A program made the position numbers and the translations under genes. Of a stretch of DNA of 32,000 bases, positions 13 to 22,964 are shown piece by piece. The stretch spans positions 450,001-482,000 of the forward strand of contig CP065004.1 of the NCBI GenBank assembly GCA_016700135.1, written 5' to 3'. Position 1 is the stretch's first letter. Each line of letters opens with the position of its first letter. The notes beneath the pieces are model-generated. The model did no database searches. It was not told the origin of the DNA and worked only from the letters and a program-made list of their open reading frames with translations. The stretch is from Candidatus Saccharimonadota bacterium (lineage in GTDB: Bacteria > Patescibacteriota > Microgenomatia > UBA1406 > GWC2-37-13).

Positions 13-933
13 GTGTATGAAGAAGAAAAACGGAAGTATGATAATCAATCTTATCAGATAGCCATGAGCTTAAAGAAACTCACAATATTGGAACTTGAAG
101 AATTATTATCTGAATCGTTAGAAAAGGAAAAATATGTTAAATTCACTCTTGATAAACCAGATATGGGAAGATTTGTAACGATTCCTTTTAGTATTTTAGA
201 TGCTAACTCAACTAGGAATCCCAATATAAGTGAAGCTAAGCTAAAAAAACTCATAAAAGATACTTTGGAAGATACAAATTGGAGGCTAATGAGTGATGGG
301 GTACATTATCGTTTAGGATATCTTTCTGGCACGCTTAAAGCATATGAACAGGCGGAAGATTTAATGGAACTTTTAGGAAAACAAGAAAAGAATCCTCCTG
401 AATCAAAAATTGATCCTGAACAACGTGCAAAATACATGAGTCATAATTTAGTACAGCTTGCCAAACTATCAGGAGAAATGGATGGGATACGAGAGACAAG
501 GAAACGAAGATTAGAAAAAGAACCAGATGGTTTTTTTCTTAATGATGGTGGTCAAGGATATACATGTGGTATTTGCTTTGATGCACATGATGGTGAAGAT
601 ATTTGGTGGCGACTAGATGGATTACGATGTAGGGATTGTTGGAGAAATATTCAAGAAGGTGTAATTCCGATATTAAACCTTGACAAAAGAAGATGGGAAA
701 AGGAATTTTTTACAAAAAATGAAATCACTGATAAACTAGGTGTCCATCCATCGACAATCAGAAAGCTACGTCGCGAAGGAGTACTTTATGGGCGTGATCT
801 GAAAAGAGAAAATAGATCAATTTATTACACTATTTATCTTAACAGTGAAAATAAAAGATTCTTGAAGAAATATCCTAAAAAAGATAAGAAGACTAAAAAA
901 ACAATTAGTGGCAAAGACAGTGATCTTATTTAA
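13..933 (+). CDS. hypothetical protein with a CxxC...CxxC zinc-ribbon-like motif and a C-terminal excisionase/MerR-type HTH; possibly 5' truncated by the window edge
   Basis: 306-aa ORF. Motif YTCGIC...LRCRDC. The C-terminal ITDKLGVHPSTIRKLRREGVL looks like an HTH_17-type helix-turn-helix. The ORF starts on GTG and nt 1-12 are open in the same frame. Confidence 0.5.
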   Translation: MYEEEKRKYDNQSYQIAMSLKKLTILELEELLSESLEKEKYVKFTLDKPDMGRFVTIPFSILDANSTRNPNISEAKLKKLIKDTLEDTNWRLMSDGVHYRLGYLSGTLKAYEQAEDLMELLGKQEKNPPESKIDPEQRAKYMSHNLVQLAKLSGEMDGIRETRKRRLEKEPDGFFLNDGGQGYTCGICFDAHDGEDIWWRLDGLRCRDCWRNIQEGVIPILNLDKRRWEKEFFTKNEITDKLGVHPSTIRKLRREGVLYGRDLKRENRSIYYTIYLNSENKRFLKKYPKKDKKTKKTISGKDSDLI

Positions 934-943
934 TTATAAATTT

Positions 944-1417
944 ATGAAAAATAAACCGACAAAGCAACATTATGTACCTCAATGTTACTTGAAGACATTT
1001 GCAACAGCCGAATCGATTAACGATAAAGAACCACTCATATGGATTTTCCCTAAGAATGAACGTAAAGGAAGGTTAGACAAAGTTAAAAATGTCTTGTTTG
1101 CGAAGGATTTATATACCCTCGATGTCGGTGGAAATAAAGATTATTCAATTGAAAAAAGTTTGGGAAATATAGAGGCAGAATATACCACAGTGTATAGAGA
1201 GAAGATTGCCAAAAGACTTCCATTAAGTAACAAGGATCATGCTGTCCTATGCATATTTATAGGAGCTCTTATGCAACGGACACTAAGACATAAAGACTCT
1301 GTCGAAAAATTCCTGAGCGAGGTGATTGAAAAAATGGAGAAAATGGATGAGGCTCATAACGCAAAGAGCAAGATTTTGGAGGACTATAAAAGCTCAAGCA
1401 GAATAGTCACAAATTAG
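944..1417 (+). CDS. DUF4238-family protein, N-terminal part (gene interrupted by a frameshift)
   Basis: The N-terminal KQHYVPQCYLKTF matches the DUF4238 signature (HYVPQ-FYL-F). ATG at 944 is the first Met after the stop of the upstream gene. The frame ends at 1417, and homology continues in another frame. Confidence 0.6.
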   Translation: MKNKPTKQHYVPQCYLKTFATAESINDKEPLIWIFPKNERKGRLDKVKNVLFAKDLYTLDVGGNKDYSIEKSLGNIEAEYTTVYREKIAKRLPLSNKDHAVLCIFIGALMQRTLRHKDSVEKFLSEVIEKMEKMDEAHNAKSKILEDYKSSSRIVTN

Positions 1418-1461: not shown

Positions 1462-1869
1462 ATGAATTTAGCATTTATGTGTACGGACAATAAGTCCCCA
1501 GGATATATAACTTGTGATGATCCATGTATCATGTTCAATCCTGAGCTACAATGGCAAAAATTTTATGGATATGGTCTTGCACAAAAATCTATTGAATTAA
1601 GCATCACTATTTCTCCCACCACGATGGCAATATTTAGTTGGCAAAACCTTCGAGGATACATAAAAACAACAGACGCGCGAGTTCAAGAGCACAATAGAAT
1701 GGTTCGACATCATGCCTACAAATATTTTCTTTTAAATGAGCCTAAGACAAAATTCATTTGGTTTAGTAAATATCCACTAAGTTTAATGTTTATGTTTAGA
1801 GTACTAAAGCATAAATTGGGTGAAATGATTTTTAGAATCAAATACCTATGGAAGATGAGAAAATACTAA
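1462..1869 (+). CDS. DUF4238-family protein, C-terminal part (frame open back to 1390)
   Basis: LAFMCTDNKSPGYITCDDPCIMFNP resembles the conserved DUF4238 C-terminal block (f-itSDnPv). Its frame is open from 1390, just after the A4 run at 1388-1391. The two parts together give about 308 aa. Confidence 0.55.
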   Translation: MNLAFMCTDNKSPGYITCDDPCIMFNPELQWQKFYGYGLAQKSIELSITISPTTMAIFSWQNLRGYIKTTDARVQEHNRMVRHHAYKYFLLNEPKTKFIWFSKYPLSLMFMFRVLKHKLGEMIFRIKYLWKMRKY

Positions 1870-4687: not shown

Positions 4688-4756
4688 ATCTATATTATCT
4701 TATATTTACTTAAACAATATTGCAAGCGCAATTTTATTCAAAATCTTTTTTAAACT

Positions 4757-4795
4757 GTCTCAAATGTCTCATTTGAGCTTAAATATGAGACATTG
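4757..4795. promoter_or_regulatory. nested inverted/direct repeats in the promoter region of the HTH-HEPN operon (candidate operator)
   Basis: TGTCTCA occurs twice (4757-4763, 4766-4772). CTCAAATG at 4759-4766 pairs with CATTTGAG at 4770-4777. AATGTCTCAT at 4763-4772 pairs with ATGAGACATT at 4785-4794. The site is 70-110 nt upstream of the start codon at 4687. Confidence 0.3.
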
Positions 4796-4805
4796 TATAC
4801 TTGAA

Positions 4806-4915
4806 CTATAAGGCTAAACTGGTTCGAATCCGAGTTCCGCCTGAAGTTGAGATTCGAACGCTATAAGGACGATCTGGTTCTAGTCCGACACGCCCAGCAC
4901 TACTAGAAACTTCGT
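4806..4915 (+). repeat. two tandem ~55-nt units, each starting CTATAAGG and each forming a hairpin; unit 1 contains a tRNA T-loop-like GGTTCGAATCC
   Basis: In unit 1, GTTCGAATC (4822-4830) pairs with GATTCGAAC (4850-4858). In unit 2, TTCTAGT pairs with ACTAGAA. Both units share CTATAAGG-N6-CTGGTTC-N-A-N-TCCGA. The repeats sit at the AT-rich island / core boundary. Confidence 0.4.
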
Positions 4916-4953
4916 TTCAGCTCATTTTCAGGTTCCTTCTTATAATTAACCCT

Positions 4954-5349
4954 ATGAACAAAAATACAATCATTATCCTAACAATCGTGGTTCTCGTTAT
5001 TCTTGGAGGAGTCGTATTTCTTACTCCGAAGAACCAACAGTCAAATATAAAGACTCAAACACAACAGACTGAAACTACAAATCAGGCAACCTCTTCGGAC
5101 CAGATTCAGAATGAGTACTCGATCGCCGATGTCCGGGCACATGGTACTGAATCAAGTTGCTGGAGTGCCGTTAACGGCAAAGTATATGATCTTACAAACT
5201 GGATTAATCAGCATCCAGGCGGACCGGAAAAAATTACTCAGATCTGCGGGATAGACGGATCTCAAGGATTCAACGGCCAACATGGCGGACAATCAGAACC
5301 CGAAAGCATGCTAAAAGAATTTTATATAGGGAATCTTCAAGGATCGTAA
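4954..5349 (+). CDS. membrane-anchored cytochrome b5-like heme-binding domain protein
   Basis: N-terminal TM helix. CWSAVNGKVYDLTNWINQHPGGPEKI...GFNGQHG matches the cytochrome b5-like fold with its HPGG motif. Confidence 0.7.
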   Translation: MNKNTIIILTIVVLVILGGVVFLTPKNQQSNIKTQTQQTETTNQATSSDQIQNEYSIADVRAHGTESSCWSAVNGKVYDLTNWINQHPGGPEKITQICGIDGSQGFNGQHGGQSEPESMLKEFYIGNLQGS

Positions 5350-5391
5350 ACAGTATTTAGTACGGGTAAAAATCAGTGCTATAATGAAAGT

Positions 5392-5880
5392 ATGTTTAAA
5401 AAGGTTCTGATAGGTACCACTGTATTACTCCTTTTTACCATAGTCGCGGAAGCTGTATATCTGTTTGTTTTTAAAACGAAAGCAACGACAGAGACTGCAA
5501 CGGTTGCAAAAACGGCTTCGGACGTATCTACCGCATCTACCCCTTCTTCTTCCCGTGAAACGGAGCAGGATACACTGAAAGTGAATAAGATACTCGGAAT
5601 TTACTTGTCATCAGCAAGCCCGATGTTTGCAGCAGGGGAAATCAGGACTACACTGCAGGGATACCTTGTTAAACAACCGCAACTTGAACAGGAATCCATA
5701 ACTTTTGAGATGAATACAATGAGCACCGGTAATGAGAATAGTACAATCAAAGCTTATTTCGAAAATACAAAGTTTGTAGATGAAAACGGGAAACCGATTG
5801 ATTATCATACTATTAAGCAAGGCGATCAAATGTCTGTCGTTTACATTTACAATTACAAAGGCTCTAGACTAGCACATTAA
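5392..5880 (+). CDS. hypothetical membrane-anchored protein
   Basis: 162-aa ORF with an N-terminal hydrophobic helix and a Thr/Ser-rich linker. No family recognised. Its last 17 nt overlap the reading frame of the IS transposase remnant. Confidence 0.45.
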   Translation: MFKKVLIGTTVLLLFTIVAEAVYLFVFKTKATTETATVAKTASDVSTASTPSSSRETEQDTLKVNKILGIYLSSASPMFAAGEIRTTLQGYLVKQPQLEQESITFEMNTMSTGNENSTIKAYFENTKFVDENGKPIDYHTIKQGDQMSVVYIYNYKGSRLAH

Positions 5881-6526
5881 CAATTTGTAATAGTTCATTG
5901 TAAAGGATCGATGGGGATTTGCTCCATCTCCATTCACACTCTTTCAAGTGTAATGGAAAGTTTTTCTTTACACCATTGAACTTAACGAGACGTCTTTACA
6001 AAAGGACCAGAATGACTCTATGCCATTGATATGGACCCCTTTGTATTTGAGAACTCATTTTTCTTGTGATTGATTCTCAAATGTTTGTCATACCCGACAT
6101 CAACAAGTCCGTTGTATCCGCTCCACGAATCTGAATATACAGTACTGTTCAAGTCAATCTTTCCTTCATAACAGCATGTAGCGTTCTTCTTTTACAGTTT
6201 GGAATGATACGAGTAAATACACGTCCTTGACGCTCATATATCCCAAATACTACCTGCTTAAATGACGTCCCACGACCTCTTTTATTTGACTTGCCTCTCA
6301 TCCTTCGAGGTCCAAAGTATGATTCATCAATTTCTATCTCACCACCAACATATCGTTGCATCTGGTGCACTTGGTGATGATATATGAGTTGACGAATATT
6401 ATTGTAATATTTGTTGACTGTATTGCGGTTGAGACCCAAAATACCAGAGGTCTGTGTAGCACTCAGATCGTGTGCAAAACACCATAGTATCTTTTTCTCT
6501 TGTATTTTGATATCGGCCTATTGTTA
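5864..6526 (-). pseudogene. IS1595-family (IS1016/ISXO2-like) transposase, degraded
   Basis: The minus-strand translation falls in three frames. (1) ...IQEKKILWCFAHDLSATQTSGILGLNRNTVNKYYNNIRQLI...GGEIEIDESYFGPRRMRGKSNKRGRGTSFKQVVFGIYERQGRV...KERLT*. (2) IDLNSTVYSDSWSGYNGLVDVGYDKHLRINHKKNEF...HINGIESFWSF. (3) RRLVKFNGVKKNFPLHLKECEWRWS. These are all conserved IS1595-type blocks. There are frameshifts near 6150 and near 6000, and no Met start. Confidence 0.75.
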
Positions 6527-6576
6527 CAAACCATACCTCTAGTTTAGCACTACTCTGCTAGTTACAATTACAAATT
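5864..6576 (-). mobile_element. decayed IS1595-family insertion sequence (approximate bounds)
   Basis: Transposase remnant plus a 10-bp inverted repeat, AATTTGTAAT (5882-5891) / ATTACAAATT (6567-6576). The IR is short and AT-rich, so the boundaries are tentative. Confidence 0.45.
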
Positions 6577-6612
6577 AGATCAATATTTTACCGAGATTGT
6601 AGTCAATCCCGT

Positions 6613-6792
6613 ATGAAAAAAGTATTTAAGAAGCCGGCCATCCGTTCAAAAAAAGTACAGGTGAACTTTTTCCAGTCATCTCGTGTCATCGACGGCGAAA
6701 TGCTGCTGTCACATGCACTTCTTGCCCAGTCCGGATGCGGATACACCATTTGTCAATGCACGCAATGCAATTGTACCGGCGTCTGTATCTAA
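6613..6792 (+). CDS. 59-aa Cys-rich putative RiPP precursor peptide (absent from the ORF track because it is under 60 aa)
   Basis: My translation is MKKVFKKPAIRSKKVQVNFFQSSRVIDGEMLLSHALLAQSGCGYTICQCTQCNCTGVCI*. It has a basic Cys-free leader-like N-terminus and six Cys in the last 18 residues. The stop is 8 nt before the radical SAM start on the same strand. Confidence 0.6.
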   Translation: MKKVFKKPAIRSKKVQVNFFQSSRVIDGEMLLSHALLAQSGCGYTICQCTQCNCTGVCI

Positions 6793-6800
6793 CATAAAGT

Positions 6801-8201
6801 ATGTCAGAAACTACAGTATTACATCGCCACAGAAATCTCTACACCGACAAGGTTGACGATTACCAGTTTGTATTTAAACCGGTATCTGAGCGTGGTGTAA
6901 CTGTTTTGAATAAGCCCTCTGCATTTGTCTTCAATCTCATAAATGATAAACGGACAGTCGGGGATATTTTCAAAGCAGCCAAAAAAAAGGATCCCGCCGT
7001 CACATTGAAAGATATTGAAAAAATTATTGAAGATCTGGTAAATACTGAGATCGTATACGGTGATGAACTGCGACCGAAATATAAAGCGGCATTCCCTGCT
7101 CAGCGCAGATTGACTGCCTGGTTTCATATTACCAATCAGTGCAACCTGCGATGTACTTACTGTTATATCTCCAAAACGGCACATAAAATGACCGATGCTA
7201 TTGGTGAAAAGACCATTGATAAACTGCTCACTGACGGAAAGAAGAACGGATTTAATACCGTGAAACTTTCGTTCGCAGGCGGAGAATGTCTCCTTGAGTT
7301 TAAACGACTCATTCACTTTGTGGAATACGGTACAGAAAAGGCAAAAGAGCTCGGTGTTAAGATTGAGTTTGGAGTCGTGACAAACGGGGTGCTTATTACC
7401 GATAAAGTGGCAAAAACACTTAAAAAATATAATATTCAGGTCGCAGTATCTCTTGATGGCTTCGGAAAATCAAATGATATGCAGCGCGTATTTGCCGACG
7501 GATCAGGAACATTCAAATATATCATGCGAGGCATTAAAACACTCCAGAAACACGGCAACCAAGTCTTTCTATTGATGACAATCACAAGACACAATATTAA
7601 AAACATCCCCGATCTTTTTAAATTTTGTCTTGAAAACAGAATCATCTTTGCTACTAATTTGTTCCGTGATAATCCCTGTGCATATTCTGACTTGGGGATG
7701 GATATGAATGACGCTGCGAAGTATCTGAAAAAGTCATTTAAACTGGCATACAAATATGTACCAGAGATCAATGATCCGGAGTATTTTGCCGTGCTGGTTG
7801 ACAGTATGTTTGACCGAGTACAGGTTTCCCGTGCTCACAATCGTGCCTGCGGTATCGGGAATAACTACATCACCATCTCACATAAAGGAGATGTGGCTAT
7901 TTGCCCGATGACGATTTCTGATCCCGTCGGATCCATAAACGATGAAGACATTGTGCATACCATGATCAAAAAAAGTTTTATTTACGGGAAAAAACTCATT
8001 ACGGAGATTGCTGCCGGTTGTCAAACCTGTCCATGGAGACAGGTCTGCTGCGGCGGTTGCCCTCTCGCCTATCTCCATAAAGAGGCAAGTCATGCTCAGC
8101 CTGACTACTGTGCGGTCTATAAAGCTCTCATTCCTGAATTACTTCGTATTGAGGCACGGCGTATTATTAAATGGGGGATGATTGAGAACGCAATCCATTA
8201 A
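6801..8201 (+). CDS. radical SAM/SPASM-domain peptide maturase with a PqqD-like (RRE) N-terminal extension
   Basis: CNLRCTYC (C114/C118/C121, nt 7140-7163) is the CxxxCxxC radical SAM cluster motif. The C-terminus has C350-X12-G-X4-C368, C407-X2-C-X5-C-X3-C420 and C437, which is the canonical SPASM seven-Cys pattern (nt 7848-8111). Residues ~30-90 (VLNKPSAFVFNLINDKRTVGDIFKAA...IEDLVNTEIV) resemble a PqqD-type peptide-binding domain. Confidence 0.85.
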   Translation: MSETTVLHRHRNLYTDKVDDYQFVFKPVSERGVTVLNKPSAFVFNLINDKRTVGDIFKAAKKKDPAVTLKDIEKIIEDLVNTEIVYGDELRPKYKAAFPAQRRLTAWFHITNQCNLRCTYCYISKTAHKMTDAIGEKTIDKLLTDGKKNGFNTVKLSFAGGECLLEFKRLIHFVEYGTEKAKELGVKIEFGVVTNGVLITDKVAKTLKKYNIQVAVSLDGFGKSNDMQRVFADGSGTFKYIMRGIKTLQKHGNQVFLLMTITRHNIKNIPDLFKFCLENRIIFATNLFRDNPCAYSDLGMDMNDAAKYLKKSFKLAYKYVPEINDPEYFAVLVDSMFDRVQVSRAHNRACGIGNNYITISHKGDVAICPMTISDPVGSINDEDIVHTMIKKSFIYGKKLITEIAAGCQTCPWRQVCCGGCPLAYLHKEASHAQPDYCAVYKALIPELLRIEARRIIKWGMIENAIH

Positions 8202-8960
8202 TTCCTTCTTTCTTTTTGTAAAAATAATCTTCTGAAGAGGAACAGTACTTTCAAGTGCTGACAGTAAATTCCGCGTTTCGGATAATTGACTCTGGGCAGA
8301 TATCAACTGCAATGAGACACGTCTTATTTCATCAGTTGTTGGTTGGGATATCTGACAGGCATTTCCCTGTTCTAGAATAAAGATTGTAGAGATTGCATAC
8401 CGTTTGTATGTTTTGCTAAAGTTGTAATCTCTTTCGAGGAACGGCCCCTGATAGAAGTAAAATGCCTCACCTTCCTGTTTGATGTACCCTTCATCATCTG
8501 CAAGTATGGGATATTCCTTCTTCAACATTGATACGAGGGTGGTTTTCCCTATTCCTGACTCTCCGATATAAATCGCGGCTTCCCCATTGACCAGATTTGC
8601 AGAACAGTGCATCACAAAACCTGTTTTTGACAACAATTGCCCGACCGCAGATTTCAGTAAATAAATAAACTGTACTCTGCTTATATGATAGAACGTGGAA
8701 ATATGATTGTATGCAACAGGGGAATAAAAATGAATAAATCCTTTCTTTTTAGGACTTTCATAGATATCAAAACCTTTAGCTTCTAAAAATTCAATAATAA
8801 AATCCGTTGAAGACGGTTCGAAATCAATGATAAAACCTTCATTATGGAGAAAAATCTCTTTACAGAACCGTTCCGGAGTCACTTTATTCTGTTTATCGGA
8901 TGACCGGTGAAATACCAGTTTAATGATAAATCCTGCAATCGAAAGATATAGTATTTGCAT
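8139..8960 (-). CDS. HPr kinase/phosphorylase C-terminal-domain-like P-loop protein
   Basis: MHCSANLVNGEAAIYIGESGIGKTTLVSML (Walker A at nt 8538-8564) follows the HprK catalytic-domain pattern H-x-(v/l)-x-G-x-(l/i)-x-G-x-SG-x-GK(S/T). Its 3' end overlaps the radical SAM 3' end by 63 nt (8139-8201). Confidence 0.55.
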   Translation of the reverse strand: MQILYLSIAGFIIKLVFHRSSDKQNKVTPERFCKEIFLHNEGFIIDFEPSSTDFIIEFLEAKGFDIYESPKKKGFIHFYSPVAYNHISTFYHISRVQFIYLLKSAVGQLLSKTGFVMHCSANLVNGEAAIYIGESGIGKTTLVSMLKKEYPILADDEGYIKQEGEAFYFYQGPFLERDYNFSKTYKRYAISTIFILEQGNACQISQPTTDEIRRVSLQLISAQSQLSETRNLLSALESTVPLQKIIFTKRKKELMDCVLNHPPFNNTPCLNTK

Positions 8961-9129
8961 ATCAATAGTATTTGTGACAACTATATCGAAGATTAATTAA
9001 AAACTCAATCCCCAAAGATTCTCCATAAGCAAATTGAATCAGCAGCAGATTATATATCTCAAGATTCGAATGCATATACAGTTTCCTTACATATCACTCT
9101 TTTCTCAGTGTCCTCCTATACTTGGACCT

Positions 9130-12486: not shown

Positions 12487-13776
12487 CTACAGCAGATTTG
12501 CCTGCTCACCAAGTGATTCTCTTTCTTTAGTGCTTTGGAAAAACCTGACTGTCCCGTATTCACCGTCATAACCAGGTTCGATAATCAGATCTTTTTTACG
12601 CATGCGCTCCACAAGAACTGACAGTTTATAAAATCCCGCACTTTCAATCTCAGATACGGGGACGCTCCGCAGAAGTTCAAACTCCGATCCAAGTGCCATA
12701 ATGATTTCCTGATACATCCTCTTAACTGTTTTGGTATTGACTCCCACGCCCTCAATTTCCGCTAGTATTTCTGAAAGCGGGACGATGTATTCGATTTGTT
12801 TGTGAGACGGCTTATATGAATCAGGACGGGCGGCGAGCGAATCCACTCTATTCTCAACCCCGACAGTCACTCTCGTATGACAAACCGGACAAATTCCGCC
12901 ATGTTCTTCCGTTTGTTTCGGAGAAAGTCGTACGGCACATTTACGATGGCCGTCAAAGTGGTACTTTCCCTCTTCCGGAAAAAATTCAATCGTCCCCCGC
13001 AATCTGCCATTATTTGTTTTAATTGCATGAACCATAGTTTTATAATTCAAATCAGTTGCAATAACGGTAGCTTCCCTGCCGATTTTTTGCGGAGAGTGAG
13101 CATCTGAGTTTGAAAGTATTGTTACAGGCTCCAGATCTTCAACCCGCCAATTCATATACGGGTCTGATGAAAGACCTGTTTCGATCGCATACACTTCACT
13201 TCTCAGATCTCCGAATGCCTCCTCAAGAGAATCAAATCCTGATTTAGAACCGAATATTCCGAACCACGGCGTCCAGATATGTGCCGGAAAAAAGAGAGTA
13301 TCCTCATGCAGATTGAGTACAATTTCAAACAGATCCCGTGTATCGAGACCTAACGTCGGACGGCCGTCCGCAGCCAGATTCCCGATCTTGGAAAATTTAG
13401 CATTCAACTCACCGGCTTTTTCCAAAGAAGGGACCACAATACAACTATGGACTTTGCGTGTTTTATCATGTCGTGAGTAGATAGACGAAATCTCAACTGT
13501 GGGCACAAACAGACAGGGATTCTCTCTTACAGACTGCGGTAAACTTGCATCAATTCCCCGGGAAATATCATCTTTCAAGGTATAAAAGCCGCCTTGTGAC
13601 TGCACAAGCTTTTCAGAGAGTTCCGAGAACCATGCAGGATGTGTAAAATCGCCGGTGCCGATAATTGTCACCCCTTTCATTTTCCCCCAGTAATACAATC
13701 CCTCAAGTGTGAGATCCTTGCTTGTGGCATATGCATAGTGGGAGTGAAGATGGAGATCAACAACGTCGTATTTCAT
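12487..13776 (-). CDS. PHP-domain nuclease, endonuclease Q (EndoQ)-like
   Basis: The N-terminal VVDLHLHSHYAYATS...KGVTIIGTGDFTHPAW is a PHP metal-binding motif arranged as in EndoQ-family proteins. The C-terminal CPVCHTRVTVGVENRVDSLA is a zinc-finger segment. Confidence 0.55.
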   Translation of the reverse strand: MKYDVVDLHLHSHYAYATSKDLTLEGLYYWGKMKGVTIIGTGDFTHPAWFSELSEKLVQSQGGFYTLKDDISRGIDASLPQSVRENPCLFVPTVEISSIYSRHDKTRKVHSCIVVPSLEKAGELNAKFSKIGNLAADGRPTLGLDTRDLFEIVLNLHEDTLFFPAHIWTPWFGIFGSKSGFDSLEEAFGDLRSEVYAIETGLSSDPYMNWRVEDLEPVTILSNSDAHSPQKIGREATVIATDLNYKTMVHAIKTNNGRLRGTIEFFPEEGKYHFDGHRKCAVRLSPKQTEEHGGICPVCHTRVTVGVENRVDSLAARPDSYKPSHKQIEYIVPLSEILAEIEGVGVNTKTVKRMYQEIIMALGSEFELLRSVPVSEIESAGFYKLSVLVERMRKKDLIIEPGYDGEYGTVRFFQSTKERESLGEQANLL

Positions 13777-14618
13777 GAGATAGGTATTTCAATATTATCT
13801 ATCAAACGAACTTCACCCATATAGCCGGCTATGAGAATCACCGAATCCGACATGATATGAAGGGGTTCAGAAAAGTCCTGTATTGAACGTATTTCAATAT
13901 ATTCCGTTCTCCATAACGGTTCCACAGACAGCATCTTCTCGATTCTTACCCGAATAACATGAGTATCTCTCTCTCCATTTATAATGCATTTTTTCGCTTC
14001 TGATAAGGCTTGATATATAACTGCCGCTTTCAAACGCTCTTTAGGCGTCAGACGCATATTTCGTGAAGAAAGCGCCAGACCTGTAGACTCTCTCACTGTA
14101 TCACAACCCACAATCTGAACAGGGACGTTCAAGTCCCGGACCATTTGCCTGACAATAAGATACTGCTGATAATCTTTTTTTCCGAAATATGCACGTGTCG
14201 GCTGTACCAGATTAAAAAGTTTGAGGACAACTGTTGACATTCCGTCAAAATGTCCGGGTCTGAAAGCTCCTTCTGCGATATCGGCTAGCGGGAAGACATG
14301 AACTGTGGTGCCGAAGCCCTCAGGGTATATTTCATCTGCTTCAGGTATAAATAAAACATCAGCATAATCTTCAATGAGCTTTTTGTCATGCTCTATTGTT
14401 CGTGGATATCTTTTCAAATCATCAGGATTATTGAATTGCTTTGGATTTACAAAAACCGAAACCGCGACAATATCATTCTCCCTTCTGGCTTGTTGTACCA
14501 AAGAAAGATGCCCTATATGAAGCGCACCCATCGTAGGAATAAATCCTATAGATTTTCCATTTTTAACATGTTCGTTAATTAGGTTTTTAACTTGTTTGAT
14601 ATTATTATAGATTGTCAT
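13773..14618 (-). CDS. panC: pantoate--beta-alanine ligase
   Basis: GFIPTMGALHIGHLSLVQQARRENDIVAVSVFVNPKQF is the conserved PanC HIGH-type motif region. 281 aa. Confidence 0.9.
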   Translation of the reverse strand: MTIYNNIKQVKNLINEHVKNGKSIGFIPTMGALHIGHLSLVQQARRENDIVAVSVFVNPKQFNNPDDLKRYPRTIEHDKKLIEDYADVLFIPEADEIYPEGFGTTVHVFPLADIAEGAFRPGHFDGMSTVVLKLFNLVQPTRAYFGKKDYQQYLIVRQMVRDLNVPVQIVGCDTVRESTGLALSSRNMRLTPKERLKAAVIYQALSEAKKCIINGERDTHVIRVRIEKMLSVEPLWRTEYIEIRSIQDFSEPLHIMSDSVILIAGYMGEVRLIDNIEIPIS

Positions 14619-14642
14619 AACAATAATTATATATTGAAAATC

Positions 14643-14669
14643 AATTTATCCACATCCTGTGGATAAATT
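14643..14669. promoter_or_regulatory. perfect 12-bp-arm palindrome containing two consensus DnaA boxes (TTATCCACA tcc TGTGGATAA); could also act as the mutL terminator hairpin
   Basis: AATTTATCCACA (14643-14654) and TGTGGATAAATT (14658-14669) are exact reverse complements. Each arm contains the 9-mer TTATCCACA. The site lies between the mutL stop (14685) and the panC start (14618). Confidence 0.5.
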
Positions 14670-14684
14670 TACTACAAGACAATG

Positions 14685-16376
14685 TTACCGCTTAAACATC
14701 TTGTCGATAGTTTTTAGATCAACTGATACTTGAAGCGGTCTTCCGTGGGGACAGGTATAGGGGTTCTCTACATTCTTCAGAGAATCAATAAGTTCTTTCA
14801 TCCGTACTTTTGTGAGCGGATCTCCTGCCTTAATAGCGCTTCGACATGCCAGGTAAGTAATCATCTTATGAGCATAGGAATCTACGGTTTGCATGCTCTC
14901 GCTTTCCTGCAGGATCTCGAGCATCTCCCTCAGAAGAGACAAGGGATCACGGTCTTTCATCAGATCAGGAACGGAACAAAGCTCCCATTTATTATTATTA
15001 GCTTGCAGCATAATTCCGAATTTTATAATACGTTCCTGATATTCTTTTACCGTTTCCTGTTCCGATAGCGACAAATCCAGTGATATTGGTTGTTTGTACG
15101 TATAAATATCTTTTTGGGAGAGTCCTTCTTCATATGCCTTGAGGAACCGTTCATATAACACTCGCTCATGTGCTGCATGCTGATCAATAAGAAGCAAGCC
15201 GCCTTTCGCCTGTAACAGGATATATGTGTCATGGATCTGCATAAGATCTTTCGTATCAAAATCTTTCGGTGATCCTAGGACTTGCTCTTTGAGTCTGTGC
15301 GCAGCATATGTCTGTGTTCCTCCGTCCCGGATCTGAAGTTCGGGAGCATTCTCCGTATTCTGCCACCTTTTATCATAAAATCTTAGGTTTTGACTCTTCA
15401 AGCTTTTGACAATACCGTCATACACCGCCTGATAGACTGCTTTCGGTTGCATGAACTTCACCTCCTCTTTTCTCGGATGGACATTTACATCGACCAGATG
15501 ATGTGGAATTTCAAGATGTATGATCACTTGCGGATAATCAGTCGGTGAAAGGAGCGTCCCGTAGGCATCTTTAATGGCACCTGCTATTGTCGTATCTGTG
15601 ATAGGCCGTCCGTTTAAATACAAAAAATACTGTTTCGTCGTTTTGTAGGTAAGTTGTGGTTTTGATATATATCCTGACAGAGAAAGATATTCCTGCACTT
15701 CACTCACGGGAATAAGTTCTTTCAAAACGGATCCGGGAAGAAGAAGCTCCAACCGTGCTTCAAAATCCGAGACAGCGGGATATGTTGCAGTCAGTTTATT
15801 GTTATGAAAAATCTGAAATCTGATTGCGGGAAAACTCAGTGCGTACGAGCTGATCATGGATATAATGTGTCGATATTCAGTCTGCTCCGATCGTAAAAAT
15901 TTTTTTCGGGCGGGAGTTTTGGTAAAAATATGACTGACCGAGATATCGGTACCTTGAGGCATAGGGACAATTCTGGCATCCGTTTTTTTTCCGTTTTCAA
16001 TAATGACTCGGTACCCGGCGATATCATCGGGAGTGCGGCTTGCTATAGAAAGACGGCATACTGATGCGATACTCGCCAAAGCTTCACCGCGGAAACCGAA
16101 CGATTGAATGTTTTGAAGATCATCTTCATCATAGATCTTACTGGTAGTGTGCCGGAGATATGAGAGTTCTATATCTTCCCGGGTCATACCGATTCCGTCA
16201 TCAATAACTTCAATTGCCTCCATCCCGAAACCTGACAGCCTGATAATAATCGATTTTGCAGAAGCATCTATTGCATTGTCAAGAAGCTCTTTCAGGATGT
16301 AAACCGGCCGTTCAATCACCTCACCGGCGGCTATTTGGTTGATCAGATGATCAGGAAGGTGATGAATAATTCCCAT
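14685..16376 (-). CDS. mutL: DNA mismatch repair protein MutL
   Basis: The N-terminal IHHLPDHLINQIAAGEVIERPVYILKELLDNAIDA is the GHKL ATPase signature of MutL. 563 aa. Confidence 0.9.
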   Translation of the reverse strand: MGIIHHLPDHLINQIAAGEVIERPVYILKELLDNAIDASAKSIIIRLSGFGMEAIEVIDDGIGMTREDIELSYLRHTTSKIYDEDDLQNIQSFGFRGEALASIASVCRLSIASRTPDDIAGYRVIIENGKKTDARIVPMPQGTDISVSHIFTKTPARKKFLRSEQTEYRHIISMISSYALSFPAIRFQIFHNNKLTATYPAVSDFEARLELLLPGSVLKELIPVSEVQEYLSLSGYISKPQLTYKTTKQYFLYLNGRPITDTTIAGAIKDAYGTLLSPTDYPQVIIHLEIPHHLVDVNVHPRKEEVKFMQPKAVYQAVYDGIVKSLKSQNLRFYDKRWQNTENAPELQIRDGGTQTYAAHRLKEQVLGSPKDFDTKDLMQIHDTYILLQAKGGLLLIDQHAAHERVLYERFLKAYEEGLSQKDIYTYKQPISLDLSLSEQETVKEYQERIIKFGIMLQANNNKWELCSVPDLMKDRDPLSLLREMLEILQESESMQTVDSYAHKMITYLACRSAIKAGDPLTKVRMKELIDSLKNVENPYTCPHGRPLQVSVDLKTIDKMFKR

Positions 16377-16386
16377 AGCTTATATC

Positions 16387-16641
16387 TTACACTGACTTTT
16401 TCAACTCATCGAGAATGTTGATGGCATCAAGAGGTGTAAGTCCGTTAATATCCAAAGATTGTAATTTCTTTTCAACTGTCGTTTTATTCTTTTGTGAAAC
16501 TTTAGTTTGCTTTTTTGTCCTTTTTTCACCGGTTTCAAGCTCATGAAGCTTATTCCAGGCAGTATCAATGACTGTTTCGGGAAGGCCGGCCTGTTTGGCA
16601 ACCGCCACACCGTAACTATGAGATGCCGCCCCTTCCTGTAT
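16387..16641 (-). CDS. mutS: MutS C-terminal fragment (out of frame with the main mutS ORF)
   Basis: This frame reads TIQEGAASHSYGVAVAKQAGLPETVIDTAWNKLHELE..., the conserved MutS domain V end. It starts directly after the premature stop of the 769-aa ORF. Confidence 0.7.
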   Translation of the reverse strand: MQEGAASHSYGVAVAKQAGLPETVIDTAWNKLHELETGEKRTKKQTKVSQKNKTTVEKKLQSLDINGLTPLDAINILDELKKSV

Positions 16642-16643
16642 CG

Positions 16644-18953
16644 TTACAGAAATACCGGTTCCCCGTCCTGGTCCGTAACTGCCATATGAGCATTGGAAAT
16701 GCGGTCAGGATAGTTGTCCTCCAACTCCTGGAGTTCATGATAATGAGTTGCAAAAAGAGTTTTGGGTTTTTCCGTACCCGTAACTAAATACTCGGCAACT
16801 GCCCAGGCAATACTGATACCGTCGTAGGTACTTGTTCCTCTTCCGATTTCATCCATAATCACGAGACTTTTTGATGTTGCTTTGTGCAGAATTTGTGCAC
16901 TTTCTACCATCTCCACCATGAACGTGGATAGCCCGTCTGCGATCATATCGGATGCCCCGCTTCTGACAAAGATTCTGTCAACGACGCAGAGCTTTGCTTC
17001 TTTTGCCGGCACGAACGAACCGATTTGGCTTAACAAAACTATTGTTGCAACCTGCCGCAAGAAAACGGATTTTCCGGCCATATTGGGGCCGGTTATAATT
17101 GTCACCTGATGCTTTCCGTCATCAAGAAGCGCATCATTCGGCACAAACTGCCGATCCTCAAAGATTGACTCAACAACCGGATGTCGGCCGGCCATAATGG
17201 TAATGGCATTCTCGTCGGTAAGTATCGGTCTGACAAATTGCTCCTGCTCGGCAATATCCGCAAATGTCAACAAACAATCAAGTACCGCAATGGCATCCGC
17301 TGCCTGCTGTATCAACGTAATACGATCAACCACCCACTCACGGACTTCACAAAAAATTGCATATTCCATGTCGTGTGATTTCTCTTCTCCCGTCAGAATA
17401 GACTCTTCTTTTTCTTTTAATTCCTGGGTAATATACCGTTCCCCGTTTACTAAAGTCTGCTTTCTGATATATTCTTCCGGAACCAAATGCAAATTCGATT
17501 TACTTATCTCAATGTAGTAGCCGAATACCGAATTGAACTTTACTTTAAGAGATGATATTCCGGTTTTCTCCTGTTCCTGCTTTTCCAGAATTTGAAGCCA
17601 TTCTTTGTCTTTTGCGATTATGCTGCGCAGTTTGTCCAAAGTTGAATCCACTCCCTCTTTGATAAGGCCGCCTTGTTTCAGGTCAAACGGAGGATCACGA
17701 ACAATATGTTTTTCAATAAACGTAATTATTTCCTGTACTTTTTCATCGACTGACTTATACAGCTCCTGCAGCAAAGGACTTTTCGCTTTTGCAATCGCTT
17801 TTTTTATTTGAAAAATATGAGACAAGGAATCCTGAAGACTGACCAAATCACGGGCATTCCCAGCTTCAAGAGATATTCGGGCAATGGTACGCTCAACATC
17901 GTGAGTCTGCCGCAAATGCTCGCGCAGAGATTTCCTGATGTCGTGATTTTTTAACAATTCCTCTACTGCTTCGTGCCTTTTAAGTATTTCATTTTTTTCA
18001 ATGAGAGGATTTTTAAGCCAGGTCCGCAGTTTCCGGCCGCCCATGGCAGTCGCAGTCCTGTCAAGGTACTGAATCAGACTTCCGCGAGTCTCTCTGTTTC
18101 TGATCGTCGAAAACAATTCAAGATTGATGATCGTTGCCCGATCAAGATACATATGATGCGCTTTCGGTACATGAGTTATAGTTTTAAAATGAGGAATACT
18201 GCTTTTTTGGGTGTACTGCAAATAATGCAGCAGAAGGCCAGCTGCGTAAACAGCCCGTTTGTCTTTTGAGACATCAAAAAGTTCGATCTGACGGCCGAAC
18301 TGTGCTGACAATATCTCCCGGGCTTTCATTTTGAACTGTTTCGAAGACCCGAAGGTATTGATGTTGAGTCCGTCATGTCGGGAAAGACGACCTAGAATAT
18401 CTGGATCATTGTATTGTTCGTCAAAAAGGACACATTCAGACGGTCTCAACCGCACGATCTCATCATCAAGGACAGTGCCGTCCGCACCGTCAAACTGCGT
18501 CATATGAAAATGTCCTGTCGTCAGATCAGCAAGGGCAAAGCCTATCGTGTTGTTGTGAAAGAACAAAGACATAATATAATTATTTTCCTTTTGGTTAAGT
18601 GATTGATCATCAAGGACAGTACCAGGCGTGACAATGCGAATTACCTTCCGGTCAACCAATCCTTTTCCATCAGGAAGACTTACCTGTTCACAGATTGCGA
18701 CTTTAAATCCTGATTTAATAAGTTTCGCAAGGTATGAATCCACCGCATGATACGGAACTCCGGCCATTGGTATCCGGCCGTCCTGCCCGCGCGCACGACT
18801 GGTGAGCGTGATCTCAAGAGCCTTTGCACCGATCTCGGCATCTTCTAAAAACAGCTCATAGAAGTCCCCCATGCGAAAAAACAACAGACAATCCGGATAC
18901 TGCTTTTTCACTTCCATGTACTGCTGCATCATGGGTGTTGAGAAGTCGTGCAT
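16644..18953 (-). CDS. mutS: DNA mismatch repair protein MutS (first 769 aa; ends at a premature TAA)
   Basis: The N-terminal TPMMQQYMEVKKQYPDCLLFFRMGDFYELF is the mismatch-binding domain. Walker A is ITGPNMAGKSVFLRQV. DEIGRGTSTYDG and FATHYHEL are present. The ORF ends ...DGEPVFL* where MutS proteins continue. Confidence 0.9.
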   Translation of the reverse strand: MHDFSTPMMQQYMEVKKQYPDCLLFFRMGDFYELFLEDAEIGAKALEITLTSRARGQDGRIPMAGVPYHAVDSYLAKLIKSGFKVAICEQVSLPDGKGLVDRKVIRIVTPGTVLDDQSLNQKENNYIMSLFFHNNTIGFALADLTTGHFHMTQFDGADGTVLDDEIVRLRPSECVLFDEQYNDPDILGRLSRHDGLNINTFGSSKQFKMKAREILSAQFGRQIELFDVSKDKRAVYAAGLLLHYLQYTQKSSIPHFKTITHVPKAHHMYLDRATIINLELFSTIRNRETRGSLIQYLDRTATAMGGRKLRTWLKNPLIEKNEILKRHEAVEELLKNHDIRKSLREHLRQTHDVERTIARISLEAGNARDLVSLQDSLSHIFQIKKAIAKAKSPLLQELYKSVDEKVQEIITFIEKHIVRDPPFDLKQGGLIKEGVDSTLDKLRSIIAKDKEWLQILEKQEQEKTGISSLKVKFNSVFGYYIEISKSNLHLVPEEYIRKQTLVNGERYITQELKEKEESILTGEEKSHDMEYAIFCEVREWVVDRITLIQQAADAIAVLDCLLTFADIAEQEQFVRPILTDENAITIMAGRHPVVESIFEDRQFVPNDALLDDGKHQVTIITGPNMAGKSVFLRQVATIVLLSQIGSFVPAKEAKLCVVDRIFVRSGASDMIADGLSTFMVEMVESAQILHKATSKSLVIMDEIGRGTSTYDGISIAWAVAEYLVTGTEKPKTLFATHYHELQELEDNYPDRISNAHMAVTDQDGEPVFL

Positions 18954-19017
18954 AGTAGTGTATTACTGTACCATATTTTCGTGTATCATGGAACTATACT
19001 TATAATTTACGACATCT

Positions 19018-19443
19018 ATGTCTGAACGAATAATCGGATATACCCTTCTTGGAATCGGAATTATTATGATCATTATTACCACCTTCCAGATTTTTTCCGT
19101 CTTTACTGGGAAAGCAACACCGATTCAGGTTTTTAAAGTTGAAAAAACCTCAGCGAAAACACAACCATCTACGACAGATCTTCTGGAAAAATTGCAGCAA
19201 GGGGACATTTCGGCACTACTCGATTCCGGTTCAGGTAGTATTCCCGGCCTTGAAGTAATCAGCCCGGAAGCCATATACAAAATGCTGAACATTACCGTAT
19301 ATTATTTTCTGATGATGTTTTTATTGAATGTGGGCTACAAAATTGCCTCGCTCGGGATCCAGATGGTACGCCCCGTCAAAGTAGAAGTAATAAATAATAA
19401 GCTTGCCTCGATGATGTCACAAAGTGAAGAACAATCCTCATAA
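19018..19443 (+). CDS. hypothetical membrane protein
   Basis: 141-aa ORF with N-terminal and central hydrophobic helices. Its stop overlaps the next start (TAATG at 19441-19445). Confidence 0.45.
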   Translation: MSERIIGYTLLGIGIIMIIITTFQIFSVFTGKATPIQVFKVEKTSAKTQPSTTDLLEKLQQGDISALLDSGSGSIPGLEVISPEAIYKMLNITVYYFLMMFLLNVGYKIASLGIQMVRPVKVEVINNKLASMMSQSEEQSS

Positions 19444-20327
19444 TGACTATGTCAAAGCATCCACAGACTCACCATTTCAACGCACTTAAAAAACGATGGA
19501 TCAAAAAACATCAGGAGATCCAAAAAAAGATTAAAGAAAAGCACACTGAATCCATGAAGTGGATCGGTGATAACTCAAAACATATTGCCGTGGGCTCCAT
19601 GACAGGACTTTTGATGCTGGCACACCCTGCGAATGCAACCGTCCTCACTCAGAACCTCCTGCCTCCCCCTCCTGCAGAAGAACGGAAAGCATACACGAAA
19701 GAGGACCTTATCAGTCAGCTCAAAGCCCAGCTTCCCGAGACCGTGCAGGAATTGTCGGCAGAACAACAAATCGCAGTAGGCCATACATTATCAACCTTTT
19801 TTAATATGACTGTTTCCTCCACACTTGAAGGCAAAAGCCTCAACAGGAGCTACGGCATAATCGGTGCTGAGCAGCATCTGATGAGATACCCGGGGGATAC
19901 CATGGACACGCACTTTCAGTCAAGCGAAGATACGAAATACTGGTCTTCAGGGATGGCTCCGGGACGCGGAGCATGGGGATATTTTACCGATTCACGGGAT
20001 ACTATGACCCAACGGGATGTTGATCGCGAAAAATATTATATTGCCGTACAGACTTTTCTTGCACCGGGTTGGCAGGAAAATCCGAATGAACTATACAAGT
20101 TTTTTAAATACAGGAAAATGCTGGTTGTCAATCCGGAAAACGGGAAAGCCATAGTGGTTGTGATCGGCGATGCCGGCCCGGCGCCGTTTACCGGCAAACA
20201 CCTGGGAGGATCGCCTGAAGTGATGGCACATCTTGAACGGAAAGACGGCGGAGCAAAAGGCCCCGTGTTATACTTTTTTATCGACGATCCTGAAGATAAA
20301 ATTCGGTTAGGGCCGGTTGAGTTATAA
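19443..20327 (+). CDS. hypothetical exported protein; the C-terminus may be an RlpA-like double-psi beta-barrel
   Basis: 294-aa ORF translationally coupled to the previous gene. YRKMLVVNPENGKAIVVVIGDAGPAPFTGKHLGGSPEVMAHL loosely follows the RlpA/DPBB pattern (v-V-N-x-nGk-vvv-i-D-GP). Confidence 0.35.
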   Translation: MTMSKHPQTHHFNALKKRWIKKHQEIQKKIKEKHTESMKWIGDNSKHIAVGSMTGLLMLAHPANATVLTQNLLPPPPAEERKAYTKEDLISQLKAQLPETVQELSAEQQIAVGHTLSTFFNMTVSSTLEGKSLNRSYGIIGAEQHLMRYPGDTMDTHFQSSEDTKYWSSGMAPGRGAWGYFTDSRDTMTQRDVDREKYYIAVQTFLAPGWQENPNELYKFFKYRKMLVVNPENGKAIVVVIGDAGPAPFTGKHLGGSPEVMAHLERKDGGAKGPVLYFFIDDPEDKIRLGPVEL

Positions 20328-20448
20328 CAAAGAAGCGGCGAAAGTATCCGTTTTGAACGACTTGGGAGGTGCGCAATCCGATCATTATCGGATGAGCACG
20401 CCCACAGAGTAAAAAAACGTGATACTGAGGCGCGACCTATTCATATTT

Positions 20449-20781
20449 ATGAAAAAACACTTTTACACACATTTAGTCGAAATCGAAACCATTTATACGG
20501 AACTTGATACTCTTCCCATGCACAAACATGAGAAAGATGAACTGGTTGAAATTGTTCACTCTACAATTCATCACGTCGTAATCGATACAGTCCTGTCAGA
20601 ACTTCCTGAAGAGGATAAAAAAATGTTCCTTTCACATGTTCATAATGAAAATCATGACTCCGTATGGAACCTTCTTAAAGAAAAAATTGAGAAGTCAGAA
20701 GAAAAAATAAAACAGGCGGTCGAACAATTGAAAAAAGAATTTCATCAGGATATTGATGAAATTAAAAAAGAAAAAAACTAA
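20449..20781 (+). CDS. hypothetical small helical protein
   Basis: The ORF is 20419..20781. The ATG at 20449 (MKKHFYTHLVEIE...) is the more plausible start. The protein is charged and helical, with no family recognised. Confidence 0.4.
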   Translation: MKKHFYTHLVEIETIYTELDTLPMHKHEKDELVEIVHSTIHHVVIDTVLSELPEEDKKMFLSHVHNENHDSVWNLLKEKIEKSEEKIKQAVEQLKKEFHQDIDEIKKEKN

Positions 20782-20822
20782 TATTTACGTTCCGTTTACA
20801 CTTCTCTGCTAAGCTATACCCT

Positions 20823-21164
20823 ATGGAAAAACACCTTTGGACCGCAAAAGTCATGACGGATATTCTTGAACGCCGTTTTAAACTATTCGGATTTGAATTC
20901 GGAATTGATCCCATAGTCGGTCTTGTTGCGGGTGCCGGGGATATTATTACCGTCATTCTCGGCCTATATTTTGTCTGGATTGGCCTGCGGATAAATATTC
21001 CCATCAACAAACTCTTTGAAATGCTTTGGAACTTGGGACTTGATTTTGCTCTCGGAAGTATTCCTCTTATCGGAGATATCTTTGATTTTACATTCAGAGC
21101 GCATGCGAAAAACTACACAATACTAAAAGATCATTATGAAAAAAACGGACTTTACAAAACGTAA
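20823..21164 (+). CDS. DUF4112-family membrane protein
   Basis: FGIDPIVGLVAGAGDIITVILGLYFVW...GSIPLIGDIFDFTFRAHAKN matches the conserved DUF4112 blocks. Confidence 0.65.
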   Translation: MEKHLWTAKVMTDILERRFKLFGFEFGIDPIVGLVAGAGDIITVILGLYFVWIGLRINIPINKLFEMLWNLGLDFALGSIPLIGDIFDFTFRAHAKNYTILKDHYEKNGLYKT

Positions 21165-22660: not shown

Positions 22661-22667
22661 TTTCTTT

Positions 22668-22961: not shown

Positions 22962-22964
22962 CAC

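Follow-up and report, generated by a model that had tools for sequence, protein, structure and literature searches.

The window that we analyzed is a stretch of 32,000 nucleotides, part of a 1,448,136-bp contig of a metagenome-assembled genome of a Candidatus Roizmanbacteria bacterium. It contains a 59-codon ORF for a peptide with a cysteine-rich C-terminus, followed directly by a gene for a radical SAM/SPASM enzyme. We will refer to these as the precursor and the maturase. The features of the locus are (positions are those of the window):

5392..5880, plus strand: membrane-anchored upstream protein QQS44455.1, 162 aa, 57-73% identical to the L001, L002, L083, and L095 proteins
5847-5859 and 6562-6574: 13-bp direct repeat TTACAATTACAAA, flanking 702 bp
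5860..6574, no strand: insertion of 715 bp (the 702 bp plus one 13-bp repeat copy), absent from the orthologous loci
6149-6439, minus strand: fragment of an IS1595-family transposase, 96 aa, from IS1595 matches
6575..6616, plus strand: displaced last 13 codons (LDQYFTEIVVNPV) and stop of the upstream gene; the C-termini are ...YNYKLDQYFTEIIVKPV in L001 and L095
6613-6792, plus strand: precursor ORF, ATG to TAA, 59 codons, translation MKKVFKKPAIRSKKVQVNFFQSSRVIDGEMLLSHALLAQSGCGYTICQCTQCNCTGVCI
6613..6735, plus strand: leader region, residues 1-41, MKKVFKKPAIRSKKVQVNFFQSSRVIDGEMLLSHALLAQSG, from the leader-family profile search and leader HMM
6736..6792, plus strand: core region, residues 42-59, CGYTICQCTQCNCTGVCI, plus the stop
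6736-6753, plus strand: C-G-Y-T-I-C motif of the core, common to related loci
6801..8201, plus strand: radical SAM/SPASM peptide maturase QQS44457.1, 466 aa, Pfam Radical_SAM and Fer4_12
6840-7043, plus strand: RRE-like N-terminal domain of the maturase, residues ~14-81, from an AF2 model
7140-7163, plus strand: CX3CX2C of the maturase, C114/C118/C121, invariant cysteines
7848-8111, plus strand: seven-Cys SPASM domain of the maturase, C350-C437, invariant cysteines
8139..8960, minus strand: ScmC-like P-loop protein QQS44458.1, 273 aa, convergent with the maturase, 3' ends overlapping by 63 nt

The ORF had been pointed out by a sequence-only reading of the window, and re-translating 6613-6792 gave the identical peptide, with cysteines at 42, 47, 49, 52, 54, and 58. 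That reading called the ORF unlisted, which holds for a 60-aa ORF track only: the protein is identical to GenBank's QQS44456.1, [quoted passage not shown] The precursor's stop ends at 6792 and the maturase's ATG is at 6801, which leaves the 8-nt spacer that the reading had taken as a sign of co-translation. Operon-type coupling is a reasonable description of this arrangement, but the stronger sense of co-translation is not. In relatives (L001, L002, L083, and L095), the tighter coupling is between the precursor and the upstream gene: the precursor's ATG overlaps the stop (ATGA) of a gene for a 165-169-aa membrane-anchored protein. In the window, the insertion breaks this coupling. No Pfam or NCBIfam model, SCIFF included, matched the precursor or its relatives. 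With E values up to 10 allowed, an NCBIfam scan yielded nothing beyond a weak sub-threshold match between the precursor's N-terminus and an unrelated RaS-RiPP model (NF050043, 16.3 versus 45 bits).

The upstream protein has an N-terminal membrane anchor and is a conserved upstream partner of the precursor. It is more distantly related to the proteins in L084 and L088, and a scan placed it in no Pfam or NCBIfam family. The gene beyond the maturase also has counterparts in close relatives, where a convergent gene for a ScmC-like protein of 268-286 aa overlaps the 3' end of the maturase gene. GenBank names the window's protein “phosphoenolpyruvate carboxykinase (ATP),” which reflects a P-loop match only. 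It has weak matches to the PEPCK_ATP P-loop, to Hpr_kinase_C, and to ScmC (TIGR04249), and two motifs are conserved among the ScmC-like proteins: Walker A (G-x-S-G-x-G-K-[ST]-T) and, downstream of it, [AS]-D-D. A single-sequence AlphaFold model was unusable (pLDDT 31.7). A profile of 11 of these proteins matched only the P-loops of ABC ATPases and PEPCK among PDB sequences, so we describe it as “P-loop, HprK/PEPCK-like” and not as a kinase.

The window contains no protease or exporter gene, no qhp genes, no PqqD, and no signal-peptidase-type gene. Genes for a CitMHS transporter, a thioredoxin-like protein, YflT, and cytochrome b5 were candidates for cluster membership, but they are absent from L084-L098. 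We left them out, since their synteny extends no further than the closest relatives, L083 and L095.

Selection on the peptide and its leader family

Is the ORF a real gene? We shuffled the mononucleotides of the window 200 times and counted ORFs of at least 40 aa that have at least 6 cysteines within 18 residues. The shuffles averaged 0.025 such ORFs versus 2 in the real window; the second of these is the antisense shadow of an HU gene at 25282-25554. Cysteine density on its own is suggestive, not decisive, and it is the comparison of sequences between genomes that we consider decisive.

Four other assemblies have orthologous 59-codon ORFs (L001, L002, L083, and L095), and we compared the coding signals of these and the window. 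At all five loci, frame +1 is the only frame without stops. Third positions dominate the differences: counts by codon position are 2/3/18 for the window versus L001, and another comparison gives 11/8/31. The precursor's dN/dS is 0.05-0.13 (Nei-Gojobori), with 0.046 against L001, and Fisher tests of synonymous versus non-synonymous changes give p = 1.6e-10 to 9e-10. Between the window and L001, there are 13.5 synonymous and 4.5 non-synonymous differences in the leader, 5 and 0 in the core, and 150.5 and 14.5 in the maturase. Gene callers also called the precursor independently in other assemblies (P0001 and P0002) and in GenBank. Codon-level conservation was one of the checks that the sequence-only reading had proposed, and it had said that stops or frameshifts in relatives would count against the gene. 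The relatives have neither, and the frame and most of the cysteines are kept. Judged by this comparison, the precursor ORF is a real gene under strong purifying selection. ORFs of 59 codons are common (in the window, 224 ORFs reach 40 aa or more), but we deem the idea of a chance ORF without a product to be refuted by the frame-specific conservation, the third-position bias, the low dN/dS, and a family of homologs that a profile search of 1.8e9 proteins found at E = 2e-40 to 1e-4.

The profile was built from the three closest peptides and was compared to 1.84 billion representative proteins. It picked up further short proteins that share this N-terminal region, and the genomic contexts of maturase homologs yielded more peptides of this kind. 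Residues 1 to ~41 of the precursor, up to the ...LLAQSG-C42 junction, align with this family (profile E = 1e-14 to 1e-25). The consensus of the family alignment is M-K-K-x-[YF]-x-K-P-x-I-x-x-K-x-[IV]-K-x-N-F-F-x-S-x-R-x-x-D-[GS]-...-L-[LA]-A-Q-S-G-C, with Pro8 and Cys42 invariant. After Cys42, the core is hypervariable in both length and sequence. Because the leader aligns as a family and the sequence is hypervariable after Cys42, we place the leader/core boundary at Cys42. This is where the sequence-only reading had placed it when it described residues 1-41 as leader-like and 42-59 as a Cys-rich core.

The description of the core as having six cysteines is correct for the window's peptide, but only four of them (Cys42, 49, 54, and 58) are invariant among the five close orthologs. 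Cys47 is replaced by Tyr in L083, and Cys52 is replaced by Pro in L002 and L083. Across the family, the number and spacing of the cysteines vary, with 3-7 in more distant members. A C-G-Y-T-I-[C/Y] motif is common to loci down to 54% maturase identity. For example, CGYTIC is kept at loci whose maturases are 60% and 54% identical (...AQGTCCGYTICQCY and ...VQSNCACGTCGCGYTICAY), and related motifs are TCCGYTICQCY in L084 and GCGYTICAY in L087/L093.

In six-frame translations of 99 source sequences, an HMM of the leader matched 21 loci of this type. In the other radical SAM loci that we examined, which were from Chloroflexota, Clostridia, and others, its best E was 0.39, which is not significant. 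Searching a word-indexed protein set with the peptide profile yielded no more than 9 members. Small ORFs are clearly under-called; the L083 peptide, for example, was missed. When we scanned metagenomes, the wide alignment of peptides offered no usable conserved stretch, and the narrow alignment gave one extra ortholog, L095. We also scanned a genome collection with generic patterns (CNLRCTYC and W..CCGGCP). Among the matches listed, L003 and L004 belong to the maturase family (41% identity), and they have small upstream ORFs (...LYCQDDCACENNN and ...GQCDACGNDNNLE); the leader HMM was negative for these and we set them aside.

The same leader is also encoded alongside other tailoring enzymes:

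L084-86: SPASM enzyme plus PqqD, second radical SAM gene, glycosyltransferase
L088/L089: NTP_transf_5 (with an N-terminal signal-peptidase-I-like domain), sulfatase, PqqD, ScmC
L090: YcaO, nitroreductase-type dehydrogenase, ScmC, sulfatase, NTP_transf_5, PqqD
L091/L092: ScmC, acetyltransferase, YcaO, nitroreductase
L097: radical SAM/SPASM gene, B12-type radical SAM gene, NTP_transf_5
P0128/L096 and P0136: leader and Cys-rich core fused to a C-terminal Hint domain

The order of peptide and then radical SAM/SPASM gene is kept in L001, L002, L083, L084-86, L087/L093/L094, and L097. All of the fully sampled leader-family loci encode a ScmC-like protein, usually together with a small membrane-anchored protein. 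By pairwise BLAST, the ScmC-like proteins are homologous across loci (25-51% identity) and the membrane-anchored proteins more weakly so. Pfam ScmC is on record for the homologs in L083, L088, L090, L091, and L097.

These loci bear on whether the peptide is a RiPP precursor at all. Alternatively, the small Cys-rich protein could act as it is, with no modification, binding metal or an Fe-S cluster, for instance, or serving the radical SAM enzyme as a redox partner. A Cys-rich C-terminus could ligate metals, and there are thioredoxin-like and cytochrome b5-like genes nearby. However, those redox genes are not conserved in L084-L098, the cysteines vary in number and spacing across the family, and unrelated cores follow the same N-terminal region beside genes for YcaO/dehydrogenase, nucleotidyltransferase/sulfatase, and PqqD, as is typical of RiPPs. 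We consider an unmodified protein to be very unlikely.

An insertion upstream of the precursor gene

The precursor and the maturase of this genome are separated from the upstream gene by a remnant of an IS1595 element. The blastn alignment of the window to L001 breaks at 5859/6559, and the insertion is absent from all four of the orthologous loci (L001, L002, L083, and L095). Taking out the 715 bp restores the upstream ORF in frame. As it stands, the upstream protein is truncated: its last 13 native codons are replaced by GSRLAH and a stop, and it now ends in ...YNYKGSRLAH. The displaced TGA still overlaps the ATG of the precursor (ATGA).

Because the remnant separates the peptide and the maturase from the upstream gene, their expression in this genome is uncertain. 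A scan of 4700-9100 for promoters and terminators found nothing above the expectation from shuffles (7 promoter-like sites versus 12.9 expected). One promoter-like site lies inside the insertion, at 6414-6442, and points outward; insertions of the IS type often drive the genes downstream of them.

It might be that the family is functional and that the window's copy is a recently inactivated remnant, so that the peptide is no longer made in this organism. On this view, the insertion would have cost the peptide its native promoter and its translational coupling and would also have shortened the upstream partner. The repeat-flanked insertion that the relatives lack, their ATGA overlap, the 13 conserved residues that are missing from the upstream protein, and the paucity of promoter-like sites are all consistent with inactivation. 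On the other hand, the ORFs for the precursor, the maturase, and the ScmC-like protein are all intact and highly conserved despite the insertion, both the peptide (dN/dS of 0.046) and the maturase (14.5 non-synonymous versus 150.5 synonymous differences) are constrained relative to L001, and the insertion carries its own outward promoter-like site. So we think that inactivation is unlikely.

The maturase and its likely chemistry

The downstream gene had been described as a SPASM maturase, and the protein bears this out: it has the CX3CX2C motif, a seven-Cys SPASM domain, and an RRE-like N-terminal domain. The invariant cysteines are C114/C118/C121 of the SAM cluster and C350, C368, C407, C410, C416, C420, and C437 of the SPASM domain. 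In an AlphaFold (AF2) model based on 40 homologs (pLDDT 90.5), residues 14-81 are arranged as beta-beta-beta-alpha-alpha-alpha, which is the RRE/PqqD topology; according to the model, then, this domain is RRE-like. The maturase has more than 150 homologs, and those whose source is named are from Patescibacteria, Microgenomates, Roizmanbacteria, or Beckwithbacteria.

Eighty NCBIfam models of radical SAM maturases match this protein, none of them near its cut-off. The scores are 150.7 bits versus a cut-off of 340 for PapB (NF047865), 136.5 versus 453 for QhpD (TIGR03906), 129.9 versus 450 for DynA, 123.5 for the Nif11-type model, 121.6 for anSME, and 117.7 versus 425 for ScfB (TIGR03974). The cyclophane-type (triceptide) families score lower: 104.6 versus 445 bits for YhhB and 83.1 versus 310 for GrrM/OscB. 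The best matches are dominated by Cys-thioether synthases (PapB, QhpD, and ScfB). When we compared the model to the PDB with Foldseek, the SCIFF thioether synthase CteB came first (5WHY/5WGG, E = 4e-22, full length). The next folds after CteB are TigE, anSME, ChlB, SuiB, and SkfB, with TigE as the fourth fold match. A sequence-profile search agrees with the fold search. The nearest characterized relatives are at most 23% identical to the maturase, and CteB is ~21% identical.

The resemblance to SCIFF (CteA/CteB; TIGR03973/TIGR03974) that the sequence-only reading had noticed, while calling the peptide distinct, agrees with these results. In both systems, a gene for a short precursor with a Cys-rich core immediately precedes the gene for a radical SAM/SPASM enzyme that has an RRE, and CteB is the best structural match. 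But the precursor does not match the SCIFF model (TIGR03973), the maturase is far below the cut-off of TIGR03974, the leader is unrelated, and the number of cysteines is not fixed, so that the six invariant cysteines of SCIFF are not found. Also, SCIFF is typical of Clostridia, whereas the host here is a CPR bacterium. Because CteB is the closest fold and yet every curated cut-off is missed, we regard the system as SCIFF-like in its logic and not as a member of SCIFF.

Our best explanation is that the ORF is a translated precursor gene of a RiPP and that its product is modified by the adjacent radical SAM enzyme. We give this a probability of about 75%. The locus shows the generic features of RiPP precursors, namely selection, a leader family with hypervariable cores, and adjacency to RiPP enzymes. 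It also has the genes by which sactipeptides and ranthipeptides are recognized, given the class definitions in PMC10288494: a SAM/SPASM maturase, an RRE, and a core that contains cysteine. We infer thioether chemistry by analogy to the nearest characterized enzymes (CteB, PapB, and QhpD), although the maturase scores far below the cut-offs of their families.

In our proposed mechanism, the maturase's RRE-like domain would bind the leader, and the likely strand-forming recognition element is the leader's alternating K-V-Q-V-N-F-F stretch. A 5'-deoxyadenosyl radical would abstract a hydrogen atom from a core residue, and a Cys thiol, handled by the auxiliary clusters of the SPASM domain, would close an intramolecular thioether ring of the sacti- or ranthipeptide type. 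We expect at least one ring in C42-G-Y-T-I-C47, and further rings would use Cys49, 54, and 58. Candidate acceptors are Thr (as in CteA), Gln, Asn, Tyr, and Ile. The highest HMM scores of the maturase are for the PapB-type ranthipeptides (freyrasin) and QhpD/QhpC. PapB and QhpD install Cys thioethers to non-alpha carbons (PMC10288494), but Asp and Glu are both missing from the window's core, so their acceptor logic (Cys-X3-Asp or Cys-Asp/Glu) cannot apply directly. The ScmC-like and membrane-anchored upstream proteins accompany this leader regardless of the tailoring chemistry; they probably act on the leader or its junction, or in processing and export. Removal of the leader probably takes place near the Ser-Gly bond of A-Q-S-G-C. 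Type I signal peptidases prefer small residues at -3 and -1, and the predicted site fits because it has small residues at these positions. We also observed that an S24/S26-like domain is fused to NTP_transf_5 in related loci, which fits the predicted removal as well.

The adjacent enzyme might instead make a key modification that is not a Cys thioether. It could form an aromatic crosslink at Tyr44, such as a three-residue cyclophane across Y-T-I or a darobactin- or triceptide-type C-O or C-C link. Or it could carry out epimerization or other chemistry, with the cysteines then forming disulfides or binding metal. A Tyr-centered crosslink has to be taken seriously as an alternative, since every core that is paired with this maturase clade contains Tyr (CGYTIC, EYTGDC, and HGYCY). 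Furthermore, DynA, YhhB, and GrrM/OscB are among the HMM matches (at the scores given above), the fourth fold match, TigE, is not a thioether enzyme, and two of the Cys positions are dispensable. Nevertheless, the top HMM matches (PapB and QhpD) and the top fold match (CteB) are Cys-thioether enzymes, no class of residue other than cysteine is enriched in all of the cores, and Cys42 does not vary anywhere in the leader family. So a modification other than a thioether seems improbable to us, and we continue to favor a thioether-containing RiPP.

One leader with several tailoring enzymes

The use of one leader family with several classes of maturases is known from NHLP and Nif11. The loci that we describe are similar in that a conserved leader precedes hypervariable cores and the tailoring enzymes differ by locus. 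They are unrelated to NHLP and Nif11 in sequence, however, and have neither a GG cleavage motif in the leader nor a PCAT transporter; the constant partners here are the ScmC-like P-loop protein and the membrane-anchored protein.

Two other known systems share some of the genes. The SynChlorMet cassette (TIGR04249-04251: ScmC, a PqqD homolog, ScmE, and ScmF) also has ScmC beside radical SAM/SPASM genes, and L084 also has a PqqD homolog and a second radical SAM gene. But the window's ScmC-like protein scores just 24.9 versus 125 bits for ScmC, the window contains a single radical SAM gene and lacks PqqD, and a precursor is evident here. As for lasso peptides, a set of HprK-related kinase, PqqD, and nucleotidyltransferase has been reported for lasso clusters (PMC8498205 and PMC7533575), and some of the related loci likewise have a P-loop HprK/PEPCK-like protein, a PqqD chaperone, and NTP_transf_5. 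No lasso cyclase or B-protease is present, though, and the likeness to HprK is confined to the P-loop and the ADD region.

We searched the literature on CPR radical SAM RiPPs, on SynChlorMet, and on the sequence motifs and found no description of this leader family. The family itself appears to be new, as do its confinement to loci of the CPR type and the constant presence of a ScmC-like protein beside it. Tentatively, and with somewhat less than even confidence, we suggest that these loci are a “chassis” for RiPPs of the CPR/Patescibacteria type, with one leader family, a dedicated ScmC-like P-loop protein, and usually a membrane-anchored protein, into which different chemistries are plugged. 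These would include crosslinking by radical SAM/SPASM enzymes, azole formation by YcaO/dehydrogenase, tailoring by nucleotidyltransferase/sulfatase, and self-cleavage by the Hint domain. The cassettes would sit in a related chromosomal neighborhood, near panC, S1, and RNase Y. If this is true, then the ScmC-like protein would represent a RiPP enzyme of a new type, directed at the leader or the junction, and the peptides could serve in interactions between episymbiont and host or among CPR bacteria.

In surveys, CPR/Patescibacteria are often reported to have few biosynthetic gene clusters or none (for example PMC11613949). Because the precursor and the maturase both fall outside of all curated families, annotation that is based on family models will not name this system. 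The leader HMM is a direct handle for mining such peptides from CPR genomes, and in the recurring ScmC-like protein there is a specific candidate for a new accessory function in RiPP biosynthesis. Also, the small Cys-rich core of 18 residues should be readily amenable to tests by heterologous co-expression. The genomes of CPR/Patescibacteria are tiny, and here a Roizmanbacterium maintains a radical SAM RiPP system under selection. Most likely, the ORF encodes the precursor of a Cys-rich peptide natural product, with a leader that CPR bacteria reuse with several kinds of enzymes.

The immediate surroundings of the precursor

Two features adjoin the Cys-rich precursor ORF and its radical SAM/SPASM maturase (QQS44457.1):

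5847-6574, IS1595-family remnant (702 bp) with its flanking repeats; transposase fragment at 6149-6439, minus strand
8139-8960, minus strand, ScmC-like P-loop protein QQS44458.1, 273 aa

The remnant has a 13-bp direct repeat, TTACAATTACAAA, on both sides, which is an unusual length. It truncates the conserved upstream gene (QQS44455.1, a small membrane-anchored protein) and now separates it from the precursor, and it is absent from four orthologous loci. GenBank names QQS44458.1 'phosphoenolpyruvate carboxykinase (ATP)'. The protein is ScmC-like instead, and its match to PEPCK is limited to the P-loop region. The 3' ends of its gene and of the maturase overlap by 63 nt, a layout that is kept in the orthologous loci L001, L002, and L083.

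In L083, the orthologous peptide ORF (751-930) was overlooked by that assembly's gene caller, which extended the maturase upstream instead (479 aa). Public protein sets are under-calling small precursors of this leader family.

Other partners of the leader family

The same leader occurs in two larger proteins and beside other enzymes:

L096 794-1459, P0128, leader, Cys-rich core, and C-terminal Hint/intein-like domain, 221 aa
P0136, same arrangement, 187 aa
L090 522-3602 and L091 8001-11586, YcaO and nitroreductase-type dehydrogenase genes adjoining the leader family
L088 1475-2743, L090 5511-6788, and L097 3742-5004, NTP_transf_5 proteins with an N-terminal signal-peptidase-I/S24-like domain

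The Hint/intein-like fusions, seen only in short sequence contexts, suggest that the peptide could be released by self-cleavage. In L090 and L091, YcaO and the dehydrogenase replace the radical SAM/SPASM enzyme beside the leader, which is the logic of azole-type RiPPs. The NTP_transf_5 proteins (for the one from L088, the match to TIGR02228 has E = 2e-8) are candidate leader peptidases for an A-x-S|G site; no NTP_transf_5 protein with this domain is encoded within the window.

The wider window and its relatives

Farther from the precursor, the window contains:

908-1417, plus strand, ORF matching the N-terminal part of DUF4238 (1-145)
1462-1869, plus strand, ORF matching its C-terminal part (184-275)
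14685-18953, mutS and mutL
25363-25623, plus strand, the only ORF besides the precursor that packs 6 or more Cys into 18 residues
27943-31813, right end, recA, recX, and dnaA

The two adjacent DUF4238 ORFs are probably a single gene that was broken by a frameshift or stop. An HU (Bac_DNA_binding-like) gene occupies the opposite strand at 25282-25554, and we take the Cys-rich ORF at 25363-25623 to be its antisense shadow. Cumulative GC skew declines steadily over the window, and a replication origin may lie nearby.

We compared window positions 13773-27190 with L091 102-8186 and L093 84-7853. The surroundings are similar: in these relatives, RiPP loci share RNase Y, HU, DUF5667, S1, and pantoate ligase as neighbors. 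But the tailoring genes and the orientation differ between the RiPP loci of the window, L091, and L093, which suggests that RiPP cassettes turn over at one chromosomal region.
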